Positions 26,410 to 38,428 of a DNA stretch of 41,666 nucleotides are shown piece by piece. The stretch comes from Escherichia phage vB_EcoM_ECO1230-10. Within the stretch, counting starts at the first letter, position 1. Each line of letters opens with the position of its first letter. The notes below the pieces were generated by a model that had not been told where the DNA came from, made no database searches, and saw nothing but the letters and a program-made list of their open reading frames with translations. The stretch lies in sequence record NC_027995.1; one strand, given 5' to 3'. The position numbers and the translations under genes are program-made.

Positions 26410-26907
26410 TCATTGTCGTGATGTCGCTCTCACCGCGTCGTAAGCCCGTTCGCACGCCAGCCCAGCGGCTCTTGCCCTGTCAGCCTCTGCTGCATAGATG
26501 CCCGCTGCTGTGTCAATTTCTCTGAACAACTCGGCAAGCAGGCTGCTGGTGCTGGCCCTTGTCTTGCTGCTGATGGTAGCGCCGGGATTGCCGCTATCTG
26601 CCTGTAGTCTGGTGATGGCGTCTGCGATACCGTCTTGCAAGCGCTTAGACTCAGCAGCAGCAATGGCAGCATTACGCTGCGCTGTAGCAATGTCCTGCTG
26701 TGCTTGTTCCTGGATTGCATCAATAGCCCCCTGGCGCTCTAACTCGATGCGCCTTTGTTGTTCGGTGAATGCCTGCCTGCTCTGTGCGTCAGCAGTATCG
26801 CGGGCAGACCATTTGGCCTGCCATGTGTGGTTGCTGTACTGATAGCCAGACAGGAAAACCCCGGCCACAACGGCCAGGGCAATGACTGTTTCAGTTGCGG
26901 GCTTCAT
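26410..26907 (-). CDS. i-spanin (Rz / LysB-like)
   Basis: start MKPATETVIALAVVAGVF (N-terminal TM) overlapping lysozyme stop (ATGA); coiled-coil periplasmic region. Confidence 0.65.
   Translation of the reverse strand: MKPATETVIALAVVAGVFLSGYQYSNHTWQAKWSARDTADAQSRQAFTEQQRRIELERQGAIDAIQEQAQQDIATAQRNAAIAAAESKRLQDGIADAITRLQADSGNPGATISSKTRASTSSLLAELFREIDTAAGIYAAEADRARAAGLACERAYDAVRATSRQ
26430..26672 (-). CDS. o-spanin (Rz1 / LysC-like) embedded in alternate frame
   Basis: MLPLLLLSLSAC lipobox signal then Pro-rich segment; wholly nested inside i-spanin gene. Confidence 0.55.
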   Translation of the reverse strand: MLPLLLLSLSACKTVSQTPSPDYRQIAAIPALPSAARQGPAPAACLPSCSEKLTQQRASMQQRLTGQEPLGWRANGLTTR

Positions 26908-27392
26908 GCCGCCACCGTGCCACCGGCGTTGCGATACGCTGCCAGCAGGTTTGCAATCTTCTGTTCGTGCTGCCCATAACCAGCACCAGGCAGTGACGCC
27001 CAAATGTTGCGAACCTGGCGCACGGCCTGTTCAAACTGGCCTGCCTGAATAAGTGGCAAGGCTCGGCGTTCACGGATTTGCTGAATTGCAATCAAATCCT
27101 GTGATAACGGGCTGAAATCTTTCAGTCCCAATTGCTTTTTGTAGGCGTCGTAATAGCGGCTCAAAAGCTGATAACGTCCAGCCGCCGTGGATTTGATGCC
27201 CAGCTTAGGTAGTTCTACCAGCTTGCGCGGATGGTCTGCATAACCGGTGAACAGGCCACCGCCAACCAGCACGTCATAGCCGTGGTCATTGGTGCGCTGT
27301 CTGCCGTTGTCCGTTCCTTCGCTATAGGCGATCATATCCAGGAACGCGCAAACGTTCTTACCACCTGCCTGTTGTGGAGTAATAACAGCCAT
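26904..27392 (-). CDS. endolysin, P2 gpK-like lysozyme
   Basis: AFLDMIAYSEGTDNG...GYDVLVGGG...STAAGRYQLL...IWASLPGAGYGQ closely follows P2 K. Confidence 0.85.
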   Translation of the reverse strand: MAVITPQQAGGKNVCAFLDMIAYSEGTDNGRQRTNDHGYDVLVGGGLFTGYADHPRKLVELPKLGIKSTAAGRYQLLSRYYDAYKKQLGLKDFSPLSQDLIAIQQIRERRALPLIQAGQFEQAVRQVRNIWASLPGAGYGQHEQKIANLLAAYRNAGGTVAA

Positions 27393-27394
27393 TA

Positions 27395-27670
27395 TTAATA
27401 CCTCTCATGTGCGGTTTTGAAACGCTTAAGCCATGATAAAAAAACGTGACGAGCGCCAACCAGTGCAATGCTGACGTTCATGGTGACAAATGGCCGTTGT
27501 GAGTAATGGCCAGTGATGGTGTGAATGATGATTGCCAGTGCTGATATTGCCACCAGCGAAAAAAACAGTTTTCCAACAATGCCGTCTTTTACTCCGCTGT
27601 ACACCACGCACCATGATGCCCAGATGAAGATGAAACAGACGGCGATAAAGTTAATGGCAAAAGTTGTCAT
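27395..27670 (-). CDS. holin/antiholin-like membrane protein (91 aa)
   Basis: two to three predicted TM helices; between holin and lysozyme; ATGA coupling. Confidence 0.5.
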   Translation of the reverse strand: MTTFAINFIAVCFIFIWASWCVVYSGVKDGIVGKLFFSLVAISALAIIIHTITGHYSQRPFVTMNVSIALVGARHVFLSWLKRFKTAHERY

Positions 27671-27990
27671 GCGTTACCACCGAATTTGCTTTTGATAGCC
27701 TCAATTAAGGTCGCAATGTCGGCGTTCTGAATCTTCCTGATAACAGCCACCACCATCGAACCGCCAAATGATCCCAGCAGGAAACCAATAGCCGAAGTGT
27801 ATTGCTGTGGGATGCTGTAAAACCATGACGTCCAACCAGTCAGGAAGTAAGAGCAAGCCAGCCCGCTACAAACAAACCACAGACGGCCTTTGATGCTCTT
27901 ATCATCGTGAAAAGGAACAGCAATCAACGCACCCATTAAACCAGCGATTGCCCATCCAATGTTATCCAGAAACTTCTCAAAAATATTCAT
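27667..27990 (-). CDS. holin (3-TM class)
   Basis: 107 aa, three hydrophobic helices and charged C-terminus; first gene of lysis cassette. Confidence 0.65.
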   Translation of the reverse strand: MNIFEKFLDNIGWAIAGLMGALIAVPFHDDKSIKGRLWFVCSGLACSYFLTGWTSWFYSIPQQYTSAIGFLLGSFGGSMVVAVIRKIQNADIATLIEAIKSKFGGNA

Positions 27991-27995
27991 GCCAG

Positions 27996-28430
27996 TTATT
28001 GCCCCGTAGTCATTAGTAGTCGGTGCTGATGGTTGTCATTTGCAGGTGATGTGTCTTTATGGGGTTTGTCAGTGCAATGGCGCTTAACGGTGCGTTCTGA
28101 AACGTCCAACAGTTCCGCGATGGTTTTCGCGTCCACTCCTTCGCTGTGCATCCGCTTAATGCTGCGGTGAATGAAATGGCGGTAAATGTATTCACAATTA
28201 GCCGGGTGAAGCATTTCACCACCGAAGTGCTGCACCATCTTGCTGGCATCGTGCCACCCCAGGATTTTCACCAGTGGGTCATTGGGTCGGATCCGCTTTG
28301 GTACATACAGGATGACTTTGTGGTATTGCTGCGATGGCACCCACAGTTTTGGTAGTTGTCCGATAAGAAAAAGCGCACGTTCACGGCCAATAACGTCAGC
28401 TATTTCCTGCACAGTGCGCGGTAATTCCAT
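27996..28430 (-). CDS. Mor/C-family transcriptional activator (candidate late activator)
   Basis: FGGEML...(about 20 aa)...VDAKTIAELLDVSERTVKRH matches Mor/C layout; located immediately upstream of lysis genes as Mu C is. Confidence 0.55.
   Translation of the reverse strand: MELPRTVQEIADVIGRERALFLIGQLPKLWVPSQQYHKVILYVPKRIRPNDPLVKILGWHDASKMVQHFGGEMLHPANCEYIYRHFIHRSIKRMHSEGVDAKTIAELLDVSERTVKRHCTDKPHKDTSPANDNHQHRLLMTTGQ
28054..28070 (-). promoter_or_regulatory. late-junction motif copy 5 (variant GACAAACCCCATAAAGA), upstream of holin
   Basis: 13 of 17 match, same strand and frame (TDKPHKD) inside activator gene 3' end; 64 nt from holin ATG. Confidence 0.35.
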
Positions 28431-34781: not shown

Positions 34782-34939
34782 TCAACACCCCACGTTTGTT
34801 TCAGGTTTTCCACTTCAAGCGCCGTTAACATGCCGTAACGGTTCAGATTCCACATTGCCGTTTTTGCCGCCAGGAACGTGATGTGGTTCCTGGTCACCAG
34901 TGCTTCTGCAAACAGTCTGCGAATGCTTTCGATTGTCAT
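34778..34939 (-). CDS. hypothetical small protein (53 aa), alternative to the track's 68-aa ORF
   Basis: MTIESIRRLFAEALVTRNHITFLAAKTAMWNLNRYGMLTALEVENLKQTWGVE; globular-looking; stop overlaps next ATG (ATGA); under 60 aa so absent from track. Confidence 0.35.
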   Translation of the reverse strand: MTIESIRRLFAEALVTRNHITFLAAKTAMWNLNRYGMLTALEVENLKQTWGVE

Positions 34940-35017
34940 CATGGTTTAGCCACTCCATCATTGATCGTCCGGTATCTACGCTGTAGCGCAGTGCGTCGGA
35001 TGCTATCTGTTTTATGC

Positions 35018-35431
35018 TCATTTGCCGAACACCAGTTTTTCAGCGTCAGCCACTGACCGCACAACACCGGCGCGGCCACCATCAGCATTCACCACACTAA
35101 TGAACGTTTTTTGCAGCGGTGACGGCTTGCCATTTTCGTCCTTAACTTCTGGACCAATGAAAATCGCCACCTTTTGGCCAACCATGTCAGCGGTTATTTC
35201 TTCAACCACATAACCAAACAGGTCGGTGAATCCTGGTGGCAACCCGGTGTCAAACGGCCTTGCGTTCCGCAGCAGGACATCACGCGGCCCCATAACAACC
35301 GGCATCTTGCGCGGCACCTTCACCACGTCATTACTGGCCCACGCTTTTCCTACGTTGGCGCGAAACAGTTTGCATCGCCCAGCCAGTGCGTTGCGGATTT
35401 CGTTCTGTATCGCGTGCTCTTTGTTAGCCAT
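35018..35431 (-). CDS. VRR-NUC domain nuclease
   Basis: start MANKEH with GGTGGGGG SD; LFRANVGKAW then PGFTDL...IFIGPEVK (PD-(D/E)xK). Confidence 0.6.
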   Translation of the reverse strand: MANKEHAIQNEIRNALAGRCKLFRANVGKAWASNDVVKVPRKMPVVMGPRDVLLRNARPFDTGLPPGFTDLFGYVVEEITADMVGQKVAIFIGPEVKDENGKPSPLQKTFISVVNADGGRAGVVRSVADAEKLVFGK

Positions 35432-35531
35432 AGATAACCCCCACCAGGACAGCACAGGCAGCCAGCACCACCAGCAGCAAGAACAATTCATCTTTCAGCA
35501 TCGCCAGGATGCCACGCAGAAACAGTTTCAT
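35424..35531 (-). CDS. 35-aa hydrophobic membrane peptide
   Basis: MKLFLRGILAMLKDELFLLLVVLAACAVLVGVIYG; ATGA-coupled on both sides; not in ORF track. Confidence 0.35.
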   Translation of the reverse strand: MKLFLRGILAMLKDELFLLLVVLAACAVLVGVIYG

Positions 35532-35920
35532 TTGACGGCCCCTGGATATTCACCAGAATTGCAGCGCATCCACACACGCAGGCCAATTTGTTCAGGTCGA
35601 AGGCTTGCCGATTGTGGCCAGAACACCTGGCGCGCCACCCAAATGATGCGGTTCTGGTTGTTGTTGGCCAGCAGGGTGACCACGCCCTGTTCGCCTGCGC
35701 CTTTGTCGCGCAGTTCAGCGATTTTGACGGCGATTTTTTGCAGTTCCAGGCAGTAGTAAACCTGGTCAACGTCCTGCAATTCCGGCTGTGGTGCCGGTTC
35801 CTGTTCTTCCGTCACCTGGCAGTTGTCCTTTGCCGGGTCCATGCCTGGCAGGCATTCGCGCGCCTGTGCTGCTGCGCTGGTGGCCGCCAGGAGGAAAGCG
35901 GCGATGATAAGTTTTTTCAT
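35528..35920 (-). CDS. secreted/periplasmic protein with Sec signal peptide
   Basis: ATG at 35920 with AGGTGA SD; MKKLIIAAFLLAATSAAAQA signal; several Cys. Confidence 0.6.
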   Translation of the reverse strand: MKKLIIAAFLLAATSAAAQARECLPGMDPAKDNCQVTEEQEPAPQPELQDVDQVYYCLELQKIAVKIAELRDKGAGEQGVVTLLANNNQNRIIWVARQVFWPQSASLRPEQIGLRVWMRCNSGEYPGAVK

Positions 35921-35962
35921 GGTGTCACCTGTGAGAACTGCCCGGCGCACCGGGCATGGTTG

Positions 35963-36631
35963 TTATTTGCCGGTCGGAATCCCACACAGCGCGTTCAGGT
36001 CAGCGACTGACAGCGCAATGCCAGTGCATGGCTGTTTAGCAATCGGCGTAGTTTCTGGAATCAGTTCTTTTGCATCTGGCCATGCTTCCAGGAGTTTTTC
36101 CACAGTTGTGAACCCTGAAATTGTCGCTTTCAGTGTTGATTTAAGCGTGTTGTATTCTTCACGCAGTTGCGCAGCTTCCTGGTCGATAGCGTCCAGTTCT
36201 TCGCGCCATTTCGGATCGCATACGATGAAATCTTTTTCGCAGGTATGCGGTGAATATTTTTTCTCGTCGTATTCAGCCACCGATTCCTTGAATAGCGGTT
36301 CATATCGTGCATCGGTGTTAACGCCGTTGCGATAAACGTAACGAGACTGGCCGGATAAATTAACGTCTAAACGGTATTGGCTACCATCAAATTCTACTCG
36401 CACATAGCTAGCGCCTTCGTGCTTAACCTCTTTTGCAAGTTTCTCAACCTGCTCCTTGATTTCTGCCAGTCGTTCATCAGTCAGACCGTATTCACCCAGG
36501 ATAAATAGGCGCAGACGTTCAGCAAAATCAGCGCGTTTCTGAACGATAGCCAAATCACGGCCTGCAAAGTCTTTGGTTTTGATTGCGTTGGCAATGATGC
36601 CATCACGGATTGCAGCGGTTAAACGTGCCAT
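35963..36631 (-). CDS. hypothetical protein (222 aa)
   Basis: start MARLTAAI with AAGAGGAAA SD; the track's longer ORF starts at the ATG inside element A. Confidence 0.6.
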   Translation of the reverse strand: MARLTAAIRDGIIANAIKTKDFAGRDLAIVQKRADFAERLRLFILGEYGLTDERLAEIKEQVEKLAKEVKHEGASYVRVEFDGSQYRLDVNLSGQSRYVYRNGVNTDARYEPLFKESVAEYDEKKYSPHTCEKDFIVCDPKWREELDAIDQEAAQLREEYNTLKSTLKATISGFTTVEKLLEAWPDAKELIPETTPIAKQPCTGIALSVADLNALCGIPTGK

Positions 36632-36675
36632 TTTGGTGTTTCCTCTTTTGTTGTTGAGCACCTGTGTGCCGGTGA

Positions 36676-36731
36676 AATAACTATACATTTCCTTTGGTAA
36701 ATATCGCCAATCGGTTGTACCTATTAATAAA
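36676..36731 (-). promoter_or_regulatory. conserved intergenic element copy A (downstream of helicase)
   Basis: homologous to 30737-30790; contains AGGAAATG. Confidence 0.4.
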
Positions 36732-36735
36732 CACG

Positions 36736-38154
36736 CTATTTACGTTTAAATCTTCTTCCGCCCATCTTCGCTATGGCCCAACCTGATGGGTTCGGCAGCC
36801 CTCGTTTCATCGCCAGGGCGGTCAGTGCGCCAATGTCTTTGCACGCATCTTCTTCGCGCCTCATCTTGGCGCGCAGACTTTCTTTGGCGCGTTCGTCCAT
36901 TTCGCGCAGTTCACCTTCCGCCACTTCAATTTCTTTGGCTTCGGCCTGTAGTTCCTTCTGGCAGTGCGGGCACTTCGGCGGCAGCGGTCTTCGGATGGCG
37001 TTGAAACAGCCTTTGCAGATGACTGGCGGCGGTGGTCCACCAGCGCTGCTGGATTTGCTGCCGCTATCATCGCCAGCCAGTGACCATTCCCGTTCATCAT
37101 CGGGGAAGCCATGACGCAGCGCATTGCCAGCGTGGTCCAGGATGATGGCGGTTTTTCCTTTGGACGGTCGCAACACGCGCCCATCTTTCTGTAACACCAG
37201 CGACAATGATTGTGTGGGCTGCGCGTCAATCAGGCAGTCAATCGTCACGTCAGTCTGCGCGATGGCTGACAGGTCGAAACCTTCACCGAACAGGGACACG
37301 TTGAAAATCACATCCAGGTTATCGTTGGCGTAGTCCTGAATGATGCGCTTGCGTTCCGCCTTATCGGTGCCGCCGTCCAGGTGTGCGGCTCGGATGCCTG
37401 AATCAATGAATGCCTGCGTTAAATGGCGGCTGTGTGCGATGTTTACCGCAAAGCCAACCGTTTTCATGCCTTTGGCGTATTTCAGCCAGTGGCTGATGAT
37501 GTTGCCGGTTAGTTTCGGTTTATCCATCTTCTCGGCGGTTTCGCCTTTTGAGAAATCGCCCATCTGCTTGCGTACACCCTTCATGTCAGGGATGTCCGGG
37601 CAGAACATGCGATAATCAGACAGGTGGCCGTTATCCATCAGCCAGCGCACAGATGGCCCCAACACGATGTCATCAAAGTGGTCATCCAGGCCGGTGCCGT
37701 CCAGGCGCTTTGGCGTGGCTGACAGGCCGATGACATACGCGCCATTCTCAAACAGCCAGGCGTTGACGCGTGCCCAACCAGCCGCGCCACAGTGGTGCGC
37801 TTCGTCCATGATTGCCAGTTTAGGGGCGGGCAGGGTGTGCAGGCGGTTTTTCAGGGTGTCGATGCTGCACACCTGCACCCCGGCGCGCAGGTTCATGGGA
37901 TAGCCTGCGGCAATAAAGCCGTGATCAATGCCGAACTTGCGAAACGTCAGGCTGGTTTGCAGCACCAGTTCTGCGCGGTGGCAAATAAACCACACCTGCT
38001 GCCCTTTTGACGATGCTTCCCCAGCCATGAATGACGCCAGCGCAGTTTTCCCCGCGCCTGTTGGTGCCTGCAATAACACGCGCCGGTTGCGCCGCATACA
38101 AAGGCGCGCCCTATTGATAATGTCGGATTGATAGTCCCTAAGTATTACGCCCAT
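36736..38154 (-). CDS. DEAH-box superfamily-2 helicase with C-terminal zinc ribbon
   Basis: Walker A APTGAGKT; MDEAHH box; CKGC...CPHC; first gene of minus-strand early operon. Confidence 0.85.
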   Translation of the reverse strand: MGVILRDYQSDIINRARLCMRRNRRVLLQAPTGAGKTALASFMAGEASSKGQQVWFICHRAELVLQTSLTFRKFGIDHGFIAAGYPMNLRAGVQVCSIDTLKNRLHTLPAPKLAIMDEAHHCGAAGWARVNAWLFENGAYVIGLSATPKRLDGTGLDDHFDDIVLGPSVRWLMDNGHLSDYRMFCPDIPDMKGVRKQMGDFSKGETAEKMDKPKLTGNIISHWLKYAKGMKTVGFAVNIAHSRHLTQAFIDSGIRAAHLDGGTDKAERKRIIQDYANDNLDVIFNVSLFGEGFDLSAIAQTDVTIDCLIDAQPTQSLSLVLQKDGRVLRPSKGKTAIILDHAGNALRHGFPDDEREWSLAGDDSGSKSSSAGGPPPPVICKGCFNAIRRPLPPKCPHCQKELQAEAKEIEVAEGELREMDERAKESLRAKMRREEDACKDIGALTALAMKRGLPNPSGWAIAKMGGRRFKRK

Positions 38155-38348
38155 AATTATTATTCATCGCTTATCATTCAAAGTATTCGCAATTGTATGT
38201 TACTGCGTTGCTTCTGTGCAACCGCAAGTATTCGTTATTGATGTTCAGCAAAACGTGATCTGCAAAAAAAAAGCATGGCAGATGTACAGCTAAGGTTTGT
38301 TGATTAGGCCTCATGACGCCAATTAAAACCCTGTTATCGACAAAGAAG

Positions 38349-38378
38349 TTGACAGTATAACAGCACGTAAGTCATAAT
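38349..38378 (+). promoter_or_regulatory. sigma70-like promoter for plus-strand early operon
   Basis: TTGACA (38349-38354), 18-nt spacer, CATAAT (38373-38378); about 45 nt upstream of exonuclease ATG with GAGGGG SD. Confidence 0.45.
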
Positions 38379-38428
38379 TCACCGCAGTTAATCGGAAGTC
38401 ATGTTAAATAATCGTTGCGAGGGGCAAT

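Follow-up and report, generated by a model that had tools for sequence, protein, structure and literature searches.

What do a secreted protein and a tiny membrane peptide contribute when their genes sit among the replication genes of a phage? The question is raised by a locus of Escherichia phage vB_EcoM_ECO1230-10 (sequence record NC_027995.1), a small E. coli myovirus of the genus Jilinvirus, whose 41,666-bp genome is the whole stretch of DNA analysed here and is referred to as the window. A first-pass annotation, made from the letters alone, had singled out a 130-amino-acid protein with an export signal, gp49, and a coupled, unannotated 35-codon open reading frame (ORF) for a hydrophobic peptide upstream of a VRR-NUC nuclease gene, and had suggested superinfection exclusion, a lysis-timing accessory or a small membrane toxin as possible functions. 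Both ORFs are real and envelope-targeted, as had been proposed, judging from the export signal, the hydrophobic helix and the conservation over related loci. Together, they form a genuine, dispensable two-gene envelope module of Jilinvirus, located between the helicase and Nmad5 genes and the nuclease gene.

A 35-codon ORF with the marks of a conserved membrane-peptide gene

The peptide (MKLFLRGILAMLKDELFLLLVVLAACAVLVGVIYG) starts where gp49 ends, the TGA of gp49 and the ATG of the peptide sharing an ATGA overlap, and the peptide gene in turn overlaps the nuclease gene by 8 nucleotides (ATGGCTAA), so that the nuclease ATG falls within its last codons; both junctions are as first annotated. We compared 17 Jilinvirus-type loci, 14 of which carry the peptide. 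Its frame was open in all 14, with stops in both other frames, and nucleotide diversity at the first, second and third codon positions was 0.28, 0.17 and 0.36 (3>1>2), as is typical of coding sequence. Independent gene callers likewise predicted the peptide on many contigs. A run of four G's inside the 3' end of gp49, in P-G codons, is the probable Shine-Dalgarno (SD) sequence, and a G-run accompanies the peptide gene even in phage Arya, whose upstream gene differs. The exact peptide was absent from the protein collection although its neighbour gp49 was present, so that it appears to be unannotated in ECO1230-10, in agreement with the first reading of the locus. Orthologues are annotated in Arya (gp51), PT1 and Alux-21, in the last of these mislabelled 'Holliday junction resolvase'.

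As a criterion for a single-pass membrane protein we used a single hydrophobic segment, 19 or more residues long, whose Kyte-Doolittle mean exceeds 1.6. The peptide has such a segment, its best 19-residue window (residues 16-34) scoring 3.02, within a range of 1.89-3.02 across 14 orthologues, which bears out the transmembrane (TM) character first ascribed to it. An N-terminal amphipathic segment with K2, R6 and K13 on one face is followed by a sequence motif and a 20-residue C-terminal hydrophobic helix. A profile search based on a 35-residue alignment, with the C terminus of a natural gp49-peptide fusion protein (see below) as its first row, returned 39 peptide clusters, all of 31-38 amino acids and all on contigs that do not exceed about 44 kb in length, sharing the motif G-[IV]-x-A-M-L-x-D-E-L-F-W-L-L ahead of a hydrophobic tail. 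L12, D14 and F17 were invariant and W18 nearly so, the ECO1230-10 copy being unusual in having L at position 18; this conservation indicates constraint beyond simple hydrophobicity. By the same token, the suggested small membrane toxin is a poor fit, the conserved LxDxLFW motif exceeding plain hydrophobicity. The peptide showed no similarity to entries of Pfam, PHROG, NCBIfam or the PDB, and tblastn against a set of 50,697 phage records (E ≤ 10) matched Jilinvirus-type phages only. Taken together, conservation of frame and motif identifies the ORF as a real gene.

gp49 is predicted to be an exported helical bundle

The window's gp49 is an exact match to YP_009168931.1. Its N terminus (MKKLIIAAFLLAATSAAAQA, then RECLPG) has the classical n/h/c layout, with A-x-A at positions -3/-1 and a signal comprising residues 1-20. 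It agrees with the criteria for Sec export and cleavage by signal peptidase I (SPase-I), which require an h-region of 10-12 residues: MKK is followed by LIIAAFLLAA and by TSAAAQA, with cleavage predicted ahead of RE. The canonical Sec signal and the AGGTGA ribosome-binding site first claimed for this 130-residue protein were thus both recovered, the latter 4 nucleotides from the ATG.

The family is small. Pfam, NCBIfam and PHROG were run on gp49, the peptide and the alternative occupants of the same genomic slot (see below), and the sole match was that of gp49 to PHROG 22028, end to end (E 1.4e-90; residues 1-130 on profile positions 1-130 of 130). PHROG 22028 has no assigned function, hence membership adds no mechanism. 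Searching 5.8 billion proteins yielded 14 gp49 clusters at 90% identity, and a search of 1.8 billion proteins for remote homologues added only six further single-domain representatives. There were no prophage copies in 5,426 complete E. coli genomes and none in the GTDB representative genomes, and in IMG/VR only the ECOO78 and Arya genomes were found.

All 14 close and 6 remote clusters have an N-terminal signal-like segment and an even number of Cys residues, which fits disulfide bonding in the periplasm. In an AlphaFold2 (AF2) model built from the family alignment, the signal peptide (residues 1-19) is unstructured, with a predicted local distance difference test (pLDDT) score below 50; it is followed by a short hairpin around Cys23 and Cys34, a Pro-rich, acidic linker and a confident four-helix bundle (residues 46-121, pLDDT ~90). 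Cys57 in helix 1 and Cys120 in helix 4 are invariant family-wide, remote homologues included, and the Cys23-Cys34 loop is RECLPGMDPAKDNC, with RECLPGMDPxxDxC invariant within the Jilinvirus clade. These two conserved pairs probably form periplasmic disulfides. The modelled fold had no significant match in the PDB, and its matches in BFVD were weak, consisting of small phage proteins of ~94-136 amino acids that are uncharacterised or labelled "lipoprotein".

Not every family member carries the same export signal. In 9 of the 14 close clusters, the SPase-I signal is replaced by a lipobox form (MKYRTALLIAAAAVLG, then CSYVGG...) with the lipidated position at Cys17 and Ser at +2, as detected with a PROSITE-type pattern ([LVI][ASTVI][GAS]C after the h-region). 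The same test for signal peptidase II (SPase-II) processing found no lipobox in ECO1230-10 gp49, whose first Cys is residue 23. Ser at position +2 of the lipobox Cys directs a lipoprotein to the outer membrane, so the lipobox relatives are predicted to be outer-membrane lipoproteins. In cluster P0007 an 18-residue low-complexity tether stands behind the Cys, making SPase-I cleavage further downstream implausible. We also considered the peptide as a substitute for the lipid anchor and rejected the idea, as the lipobox forms in loci L013-L018 also carry the peptide. On short metagenomic contigs, a remote homologue (P0015, 42% identity) comes directly after a gene for a lambda-N-like antiterminator (L020 123-449 and 547-948), indicating that the exported domain circulates also in lambdoid early-left operons.

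The two genes share an exchangeable slot

The existence of the pair, its localisation signals, its conservation and its modularity can all be read from the compared loci. gp49 is followed by the peptide in 13 of the 17 (the window, Bas97, ep3, Alux-21, PT1, L008, L010 and L013-L018). Where an extra gene has entered the locus (L014, L018), it is inserted between peptide and nuclease, not between gp49 and peptide. In a distant 45-kb relative (L025 4463-4805), three small hydrophobic ORFs of 39, 32 and 36 amino acids separate a gp49 homologue (32% identity) from the nuclease, and the helicase is likewise upstream, so that the synteny recurs. An F-W-L motif in the last of these small ORFs recalls the Jilinvirus peptide, but the two could not be shown to be homologous.

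In one lineage (cluster P0002, locus L008) the two genes are fused. One additional G in the CCGGGGG run (L008 2990-3000 region; six G's versus five in L017) joins the frames into a 165-amino-acid protein, and the fusion was found on 9 assembled contigs of 20-50 kb. It retains the internal G-run and ATG, so the free peptide may still be made. A programmed frameshift was not indicated as its source, there being no canonical slippery heptamer, and the ECO1230-10 window has only four G's at this place. Such a fusion is a weak, Rosetta-stone type of hint at a partnership between gp49 and the peptide.

The 5' side of the pair is marked by a GC hairpin, present as a single copy in the window and contained in its minimum free energy (MFE) fold. 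The stem was the same in 14 of the 17 loci (the window, L001-L009, L014, L015, L017 and L018), whatever gene precedes or follows, with a loop that is mostly UUCG (GCCCGG-UKCG-CCGGGC); L010 has a re-registered GC hairpin and then UUUUCUC, and L013 and L016 have no hairpin. No U-run follows on the sense strand, so this is not a canonical terminator, and Rfam returned nothing in 34900-36200. After the hairpin, whose last base is 19 nucleotides from the start codon of the gene in the slot, TTCTCACAGGTGA-ACC-ATG stands ahead of any such gene in these 14 loci, and TTCTCACAGGTGAcACC-ATG is conserved 5' of every occupant. These occupants are always small membrane or exported proteins, also in Arya (gp52, 50 amino acids, hydrophobic) and in KA2-1, the one locus of 17 with neither gp49 nor peptide, in which only a hydrophobic protein of 51 amino acids (gp40) is found there. 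The gene 5' of the hairpin varies too, being Nmad5, one of several unrelated ORFs of 91-99 amino acids, a TerB-like gene with DUF3927, or nothing. With genes varying on both sides of the hairpin, the region behaves as an accessory-gene exchange point within an otherwise conserved operon, and the hairpin marks the 5' edge of the exchangeable envelope slot. As an RNA element it may serve stability or processing or act as a leaky attenuator; alternatively, it may be a boundary for cassette exchange. The pair does not have the make-up of a moron: no promoter-like site on the sense strand and no canonical terminator flanks it, and gp49 and the peptide gene are translationally chained to their neighbours.

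Genomic setting

Nearly the whole ECO1230-10 genome is encoded on the minus strand, the gp49, peptide and nuclease genes included (Table 1). Its nearest relatives, at ~88% nucleotide identity, are the Jilinvirus phages (subfamily Iiscvirinae) ep3, HeidiAbel/Bas97, PT1, Alux-21 and ECOO78; Arya and KA2-1 are remoter. The gene order runs from helicase through the Nmad5 gene, gp49, the peptide and the VRR-NUC-like nuclease to several small ORFs with a helix-turn-helix (HTH) protein, and continues with a DNA methyltransferase, primase, late activator (27996-28430), lysis genes and structural genes. We label the block around gp49 early because of this replication-type gene order and because a CI-like repressor is divergent from the helicase in relatives; early timing is thus reasonably assumed, in line with the originally proposed location in an early operon, among the replication and early genes directly 5' of the nuclease.

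Table 1. Features of the gp49 locus and of the lysis cassette in the window
Feature	Position	Strand	Details
Helicase	36736-38154		First in listed gene order
Nmad5-domain gene	35963-36688	minus	Nmad5 (nucleotide-modification-associated), E 8e-38; upstream of gp49
GC hairpin GCCCGG-UGCG-CCGGGC	35940-35955	minus	Just 3' of the preceding stop; last base 19 nucleotides 5' of the gp49 ATG
gp49 SD, AGGTGA	35925-35930	minus	4 nucleotides 5' of the ATG; read from the sequence
gp49	35528-35920	minus	ATG 35920-35918, TGA 35530-35528; 130 amino acids
G-run GGGG	35539-35542	minus	Inside gp49 3' end; 7 nucleotides 5' of the peptide ATG
Peptide ORF	35424-35531	minus	ATG 35531-35529, TAA 35426-35424; 35 codons
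VRR-NUC-like nuclease	35018-35431	minus	ATG 35431-35429; 137 amino acids, starts MANKEH
Two holins	27395-27990		Lysis cassette
Endolysin	26904-27392		Lysis cassette
Rz-like spanin	26410-27003	minus	Lysis cassette
Rz1-type o-spanin	26430-26723	minus	Embedded out of frame in the Rz-like gene; lipobox LLLLSLSAC

The nuclease matches Pfam VRR_NUC at E 9.7e-4, under the gathering score, as well as PHROG 93 (endonuclease, 1.7e-14) and PHROG 5702 (resolvase, 2.3e-9); the VRR-NUC label is soft but reasonable. At the other end of the block, promoter-like hexamers point both ways in the gap of ~275 nucleotides between the divergent helicase and exonuclease VIII genes (38155-38428). A CI-like repressor gene is not in this gap, nor in that of ep3; one is present there in HeidiAbel, Arya, L008 and L010. 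HeidiAbel was described in the BASEL paper as very sensitive to restriction-modification systems, in contrast with the presence of an Nmad5 gene in the ECO1230-10 window.

A tentative role in superinfection exclusion or envelope protection

What might such a module do? We tentatively favour, at a probability of about 0.38, an early-made superinfection-exclusion or envelope-protection module; of the three functions suggested at first, exclusion would be the most reasonable guess. gp49 would be exported by Sec, cleaved after AQA and folded in the periplasm as a four-helix bundle probably stapled by Cys57-Cys120, preceded by the Cys23-Cys34 loop on a flexible Pro-rich, acidic tether, and the lipobox relatives (Cys17, Ser+2) would present the same domain as an outer-membrane lipoprotein. 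Translational coupling, or reinitiation at the ATGA, would produce the peptide, a single helix that would sit tail-anchored in the inner membrane. The module would then act on the envelope early in infection, excluding superinfecting phages or protecting the cell at a periplasmic or inner-membrane step; the peptide may work jointly with gp49 or alongside it. We infer the expression timing, topology, physical partnership and exclusion function from sequence features and gene context.

Position in the early block, exported or membrane-bound occupants, dispensability, rapid swapping and restriction to one phage group are as expected of envelope-level competition or protection. In the same line, the variable, dispensable module belongs to the replication block, ahead of both the late activator and the lysis genes. 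The relative HeidiAbel is strictly dependent on the O-antigen (O16), and the genus is facultatively temperate (PMC11990801). In such a background, envelope-level competition would be relevant.

Several phage systems are precedents for competition or protection at the envelope, namely T4 Sp/Imm, T5 Llp, Cor, HK97 gp15 and D3 Iap. T4, a contractile-tailed phage, makes early and non-essential use of a small helical periplasmic protein with a signal peptide (Sp, or Spackle) and a small inner-membrane protein (Imm), an arrangement like that of gp49 and the peptide; no homology of either to Imm (Pfam Imm_superinfect) or to Spackle was found, in sequence or in fold. The lipobox relatives of gp49 (9 of 14 clusters) resemble the outer-membrane lipoproteins T5 Llp and phi80/N15 Cor, which block receptors, whereas ECO1230-10 gp49 has an SPase-I signal, no lipobox and no homology to Llp or Cor. 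Moreover, Llp masks FhuA, but the O-antigen, the known receptor of the Jilinvirus genus, could not be masked by a lipoprotein in this way. More generally, neither gp49 nor the peptide was similar in sequence or fold to any known exclusion protein in Pfam, in tblastn searches of phage records or in the PDB.

A number of observations weigh against a dedicated exclusion pair. gp49 occurs without the peptide in 2 of the 17 loci (ECOO78 and L009), in which the nuclease couples straight to gp49 through TGATG, and the peptide occurs without gp49 in one (Arya), behind an unrelated hydrophobic protein of 50 amino acids; with the genes found apart in these three, a strict two-component mechanism is not required. 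ATGA overlaps are usual throughout the operon (junctions 34942, 34781, 34548 and 34058), which, together with the direct nuclease-gp49 coupling, means that coupling is no evidence of a dedicated pair. Of the translationally coupled pair originally described, the overlap itself thus stands, but it is generic in this operon and the pair is not obligate (13 of 17 loci). The lipobox and SPase-I forms of gp49 each occur with and without the peptide. All Lys and Arg residues of the free peptide precede the helix, which predicts an N-in/C-out orientation; this would leave almost nothing in the periplasm to contact gp49, and the fusion forces the opposite, N-out topology. Finally, pairwise ratios of nonsynonymous to synonymous substitution rates (dN/dS) for the peptide were only moderately low, at 0.25-1.3, a range that plausibly fits a short hydrophobic peptide.

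Alternative explanations

Much of this evidence would suit two functionally independent neighbours, with the peptide acting alone, either to modulate some inner-membrane protein or process of the host (for instance as a division or transport inhibitor of the SidA, Kil or AcrZ kind) or as a membrane-active host-takeover factor, and gp49 serving an unrelated purpose in the periplasm. The separate occurrence of either gene, the generic ATGA coupling and a predicted N-in topology that would leave no periplasmic part to touch gp49 all point this way, as do the P0015 locus, where no membrane ORF follows the gp49 homologue in its lambdoid N-region, and the conserved LxDELFW interface motif, which suggests a specific helix-helix partner. 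However, gp49 and the peptide are adjacent in 13 of 17 loci, the gene inserted in L014 and L018 never splits them, a natural fusion joins them, and the distant 45-kb relative likewise pairs an exported protein with small hydrophobic ORFs. On balance, we regard independence as somewhat unlikely.

The same adjacency and fusion could be read further, as the sign of a new kind of envelope system with two parts. The peptide would then be what partners or anchors gp49 at the inner membrane, and the fusion would be a true Rosetta stone. Such a system might act early by blocking genome entry of rival O-antigen-dependent myoviruses, by an Iap-like shutdown of O-antigen assembly or by neutralising an envelope-sensing host defence, with the toggling between soluble and lipoprotein forms repositioning the exported part. 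This extension seems rather improbable.

Alternatively, the peptide could alter the receptor. It would disturb the assembly of O-antigen or lipopolysaccharide (LPS) in the inner membrane, as the small Iap peptide of Pseudomonas phage D3 does by blocking the Wzy polymerase, so that fewer additional O-antigen-dependent phages would adsorb to the infected cell or its debris. HeidiAbel, a close relative, is wholly dependent on O16 O-antigen (PMC11990801), small O-antigen-altering phage proteins such as those of the D3 iap and gnarl genes are documented (PMC12373910), and Iap and the peptide are both very small, single-pass phage peptides from a setting in which O-antigen matters to the phage (PMC12373910; PMC11990801). 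However, the action of D3 iap also involves an O-acetylase and a beta-polymerase of the phage (PMC12373910), and neither these nor another O-antigen-modifying enzyme were noticed beside the cassette in the loci examined, which were not searched systematically for them. The peptide had no sequence similarity to Iap in tblastn of the phage records or in Pfam at E ≤ 10, the former finding Jilinvirus-type peptides only and hence no detectable likeness to other phage peptides, and the latter giving no Wzz- or Wzy-related signal. O-antigen change would, in addition, be slow relative to one lytic cycle. We consider receptor alteration quite improbable.

A lysis accessory, the second of the functions first suggested, would make the pair either a T4 RI-like antiholin or sensor for lysis inhibition, or one more spanin-like bridge, built from an outer-membrane lipoprotein and an inner-membrane helix. 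An exported protein with lipoprotein forms, an inner-membrane helix and overlapping genes superficially recall an o-spanin/i-spanin pair such as Rz/Rz1, the fusion, with its N-terminal export signal and C-terminal TM segment, recalls a unimolecular spanin (u-spanin) such as T1 gp11, and gp49 has a Pro-rich linker. ECO1230-10, however, has its own complete holin-holin-endolysin-Rz/Rz1 cassette (26410-27990) with a true Rz/Rz1 pair (26410-27003), ~8 kb downstream of gp49 and the peptide and beyond the late activator, which makes a core lysis role unlikely. The peptide has its TM segment at the C terminus and is essentially devoid of a periplasmic domain or coiled coil, and gp49 of the window is a compact bundle without a lipobox, so neither is able to bridge the periplasm; in viable relatives, furthermore, the module is absent or replaced. 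A lysis role is thus very unlikely.

Barely credible, finally, is the reading that the small ORF is no gene and that the nuclease starts further 5' (MNCSCCWW...), in a frame that is open in the window and annotated in ep3 (RefSeq YP_009100005.1, 157 amino acids) and HeidiAbel (Bas97_0045, 156 amino acids), with the annotated genes at L001 3018-3488 and L002 3018-3491: the extension of 19-20 codons, which overlaps the peptide gene in another frame (window 35432-35491, minus strand), is Cys/Trp-rich and, in 6 of the 14 loci, is interrupted by stops or lacks a start codon (Arya, L010, L013, L015, L016 and L018), the peptide frame has the openness, periodicity and independent gene calls described above, and the peptide stays with gp49 where another gene parts it from the nuclease. 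The MANKEH/MSNKEH/MKEH start of the nuclease is conserved and the sequence upstream of it is not, which indicates that the nuclease start is over-extended in the ep3 RefSeq and HeidiAbel (BASEL) GenBank records.

Implications

Overall, gp49 and the peptide are uncharacterised members of a familiar class, the small envelope accessory genes of phages, and represent ordinary accessory-gene biology; the findings do not bear on any long-standing open question. They add a real 35-residue gene to the annotation of ECO1230-10 and correct the nuclease starts of ep3 and HeidiAbel. They also define a peptide family, an exported four-helix-bundle family that switches between SPase-I and lipoprotein forms, and a hairpin-marked, exchangeable envelope slot of Jilinvirus that holds secreted, lipoprotein and micro-membrane proteins. 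The peptide-less ECOO78, the fused form and the lipoprotein forms constitute a natural allelic series for experiments. Jilinvirus phages are therapy candidates against avian and bovine pathogenic E. coli, and the design of phage cocktails would be affected if exclusion, or remodelling of receptor or envelope, proves true.

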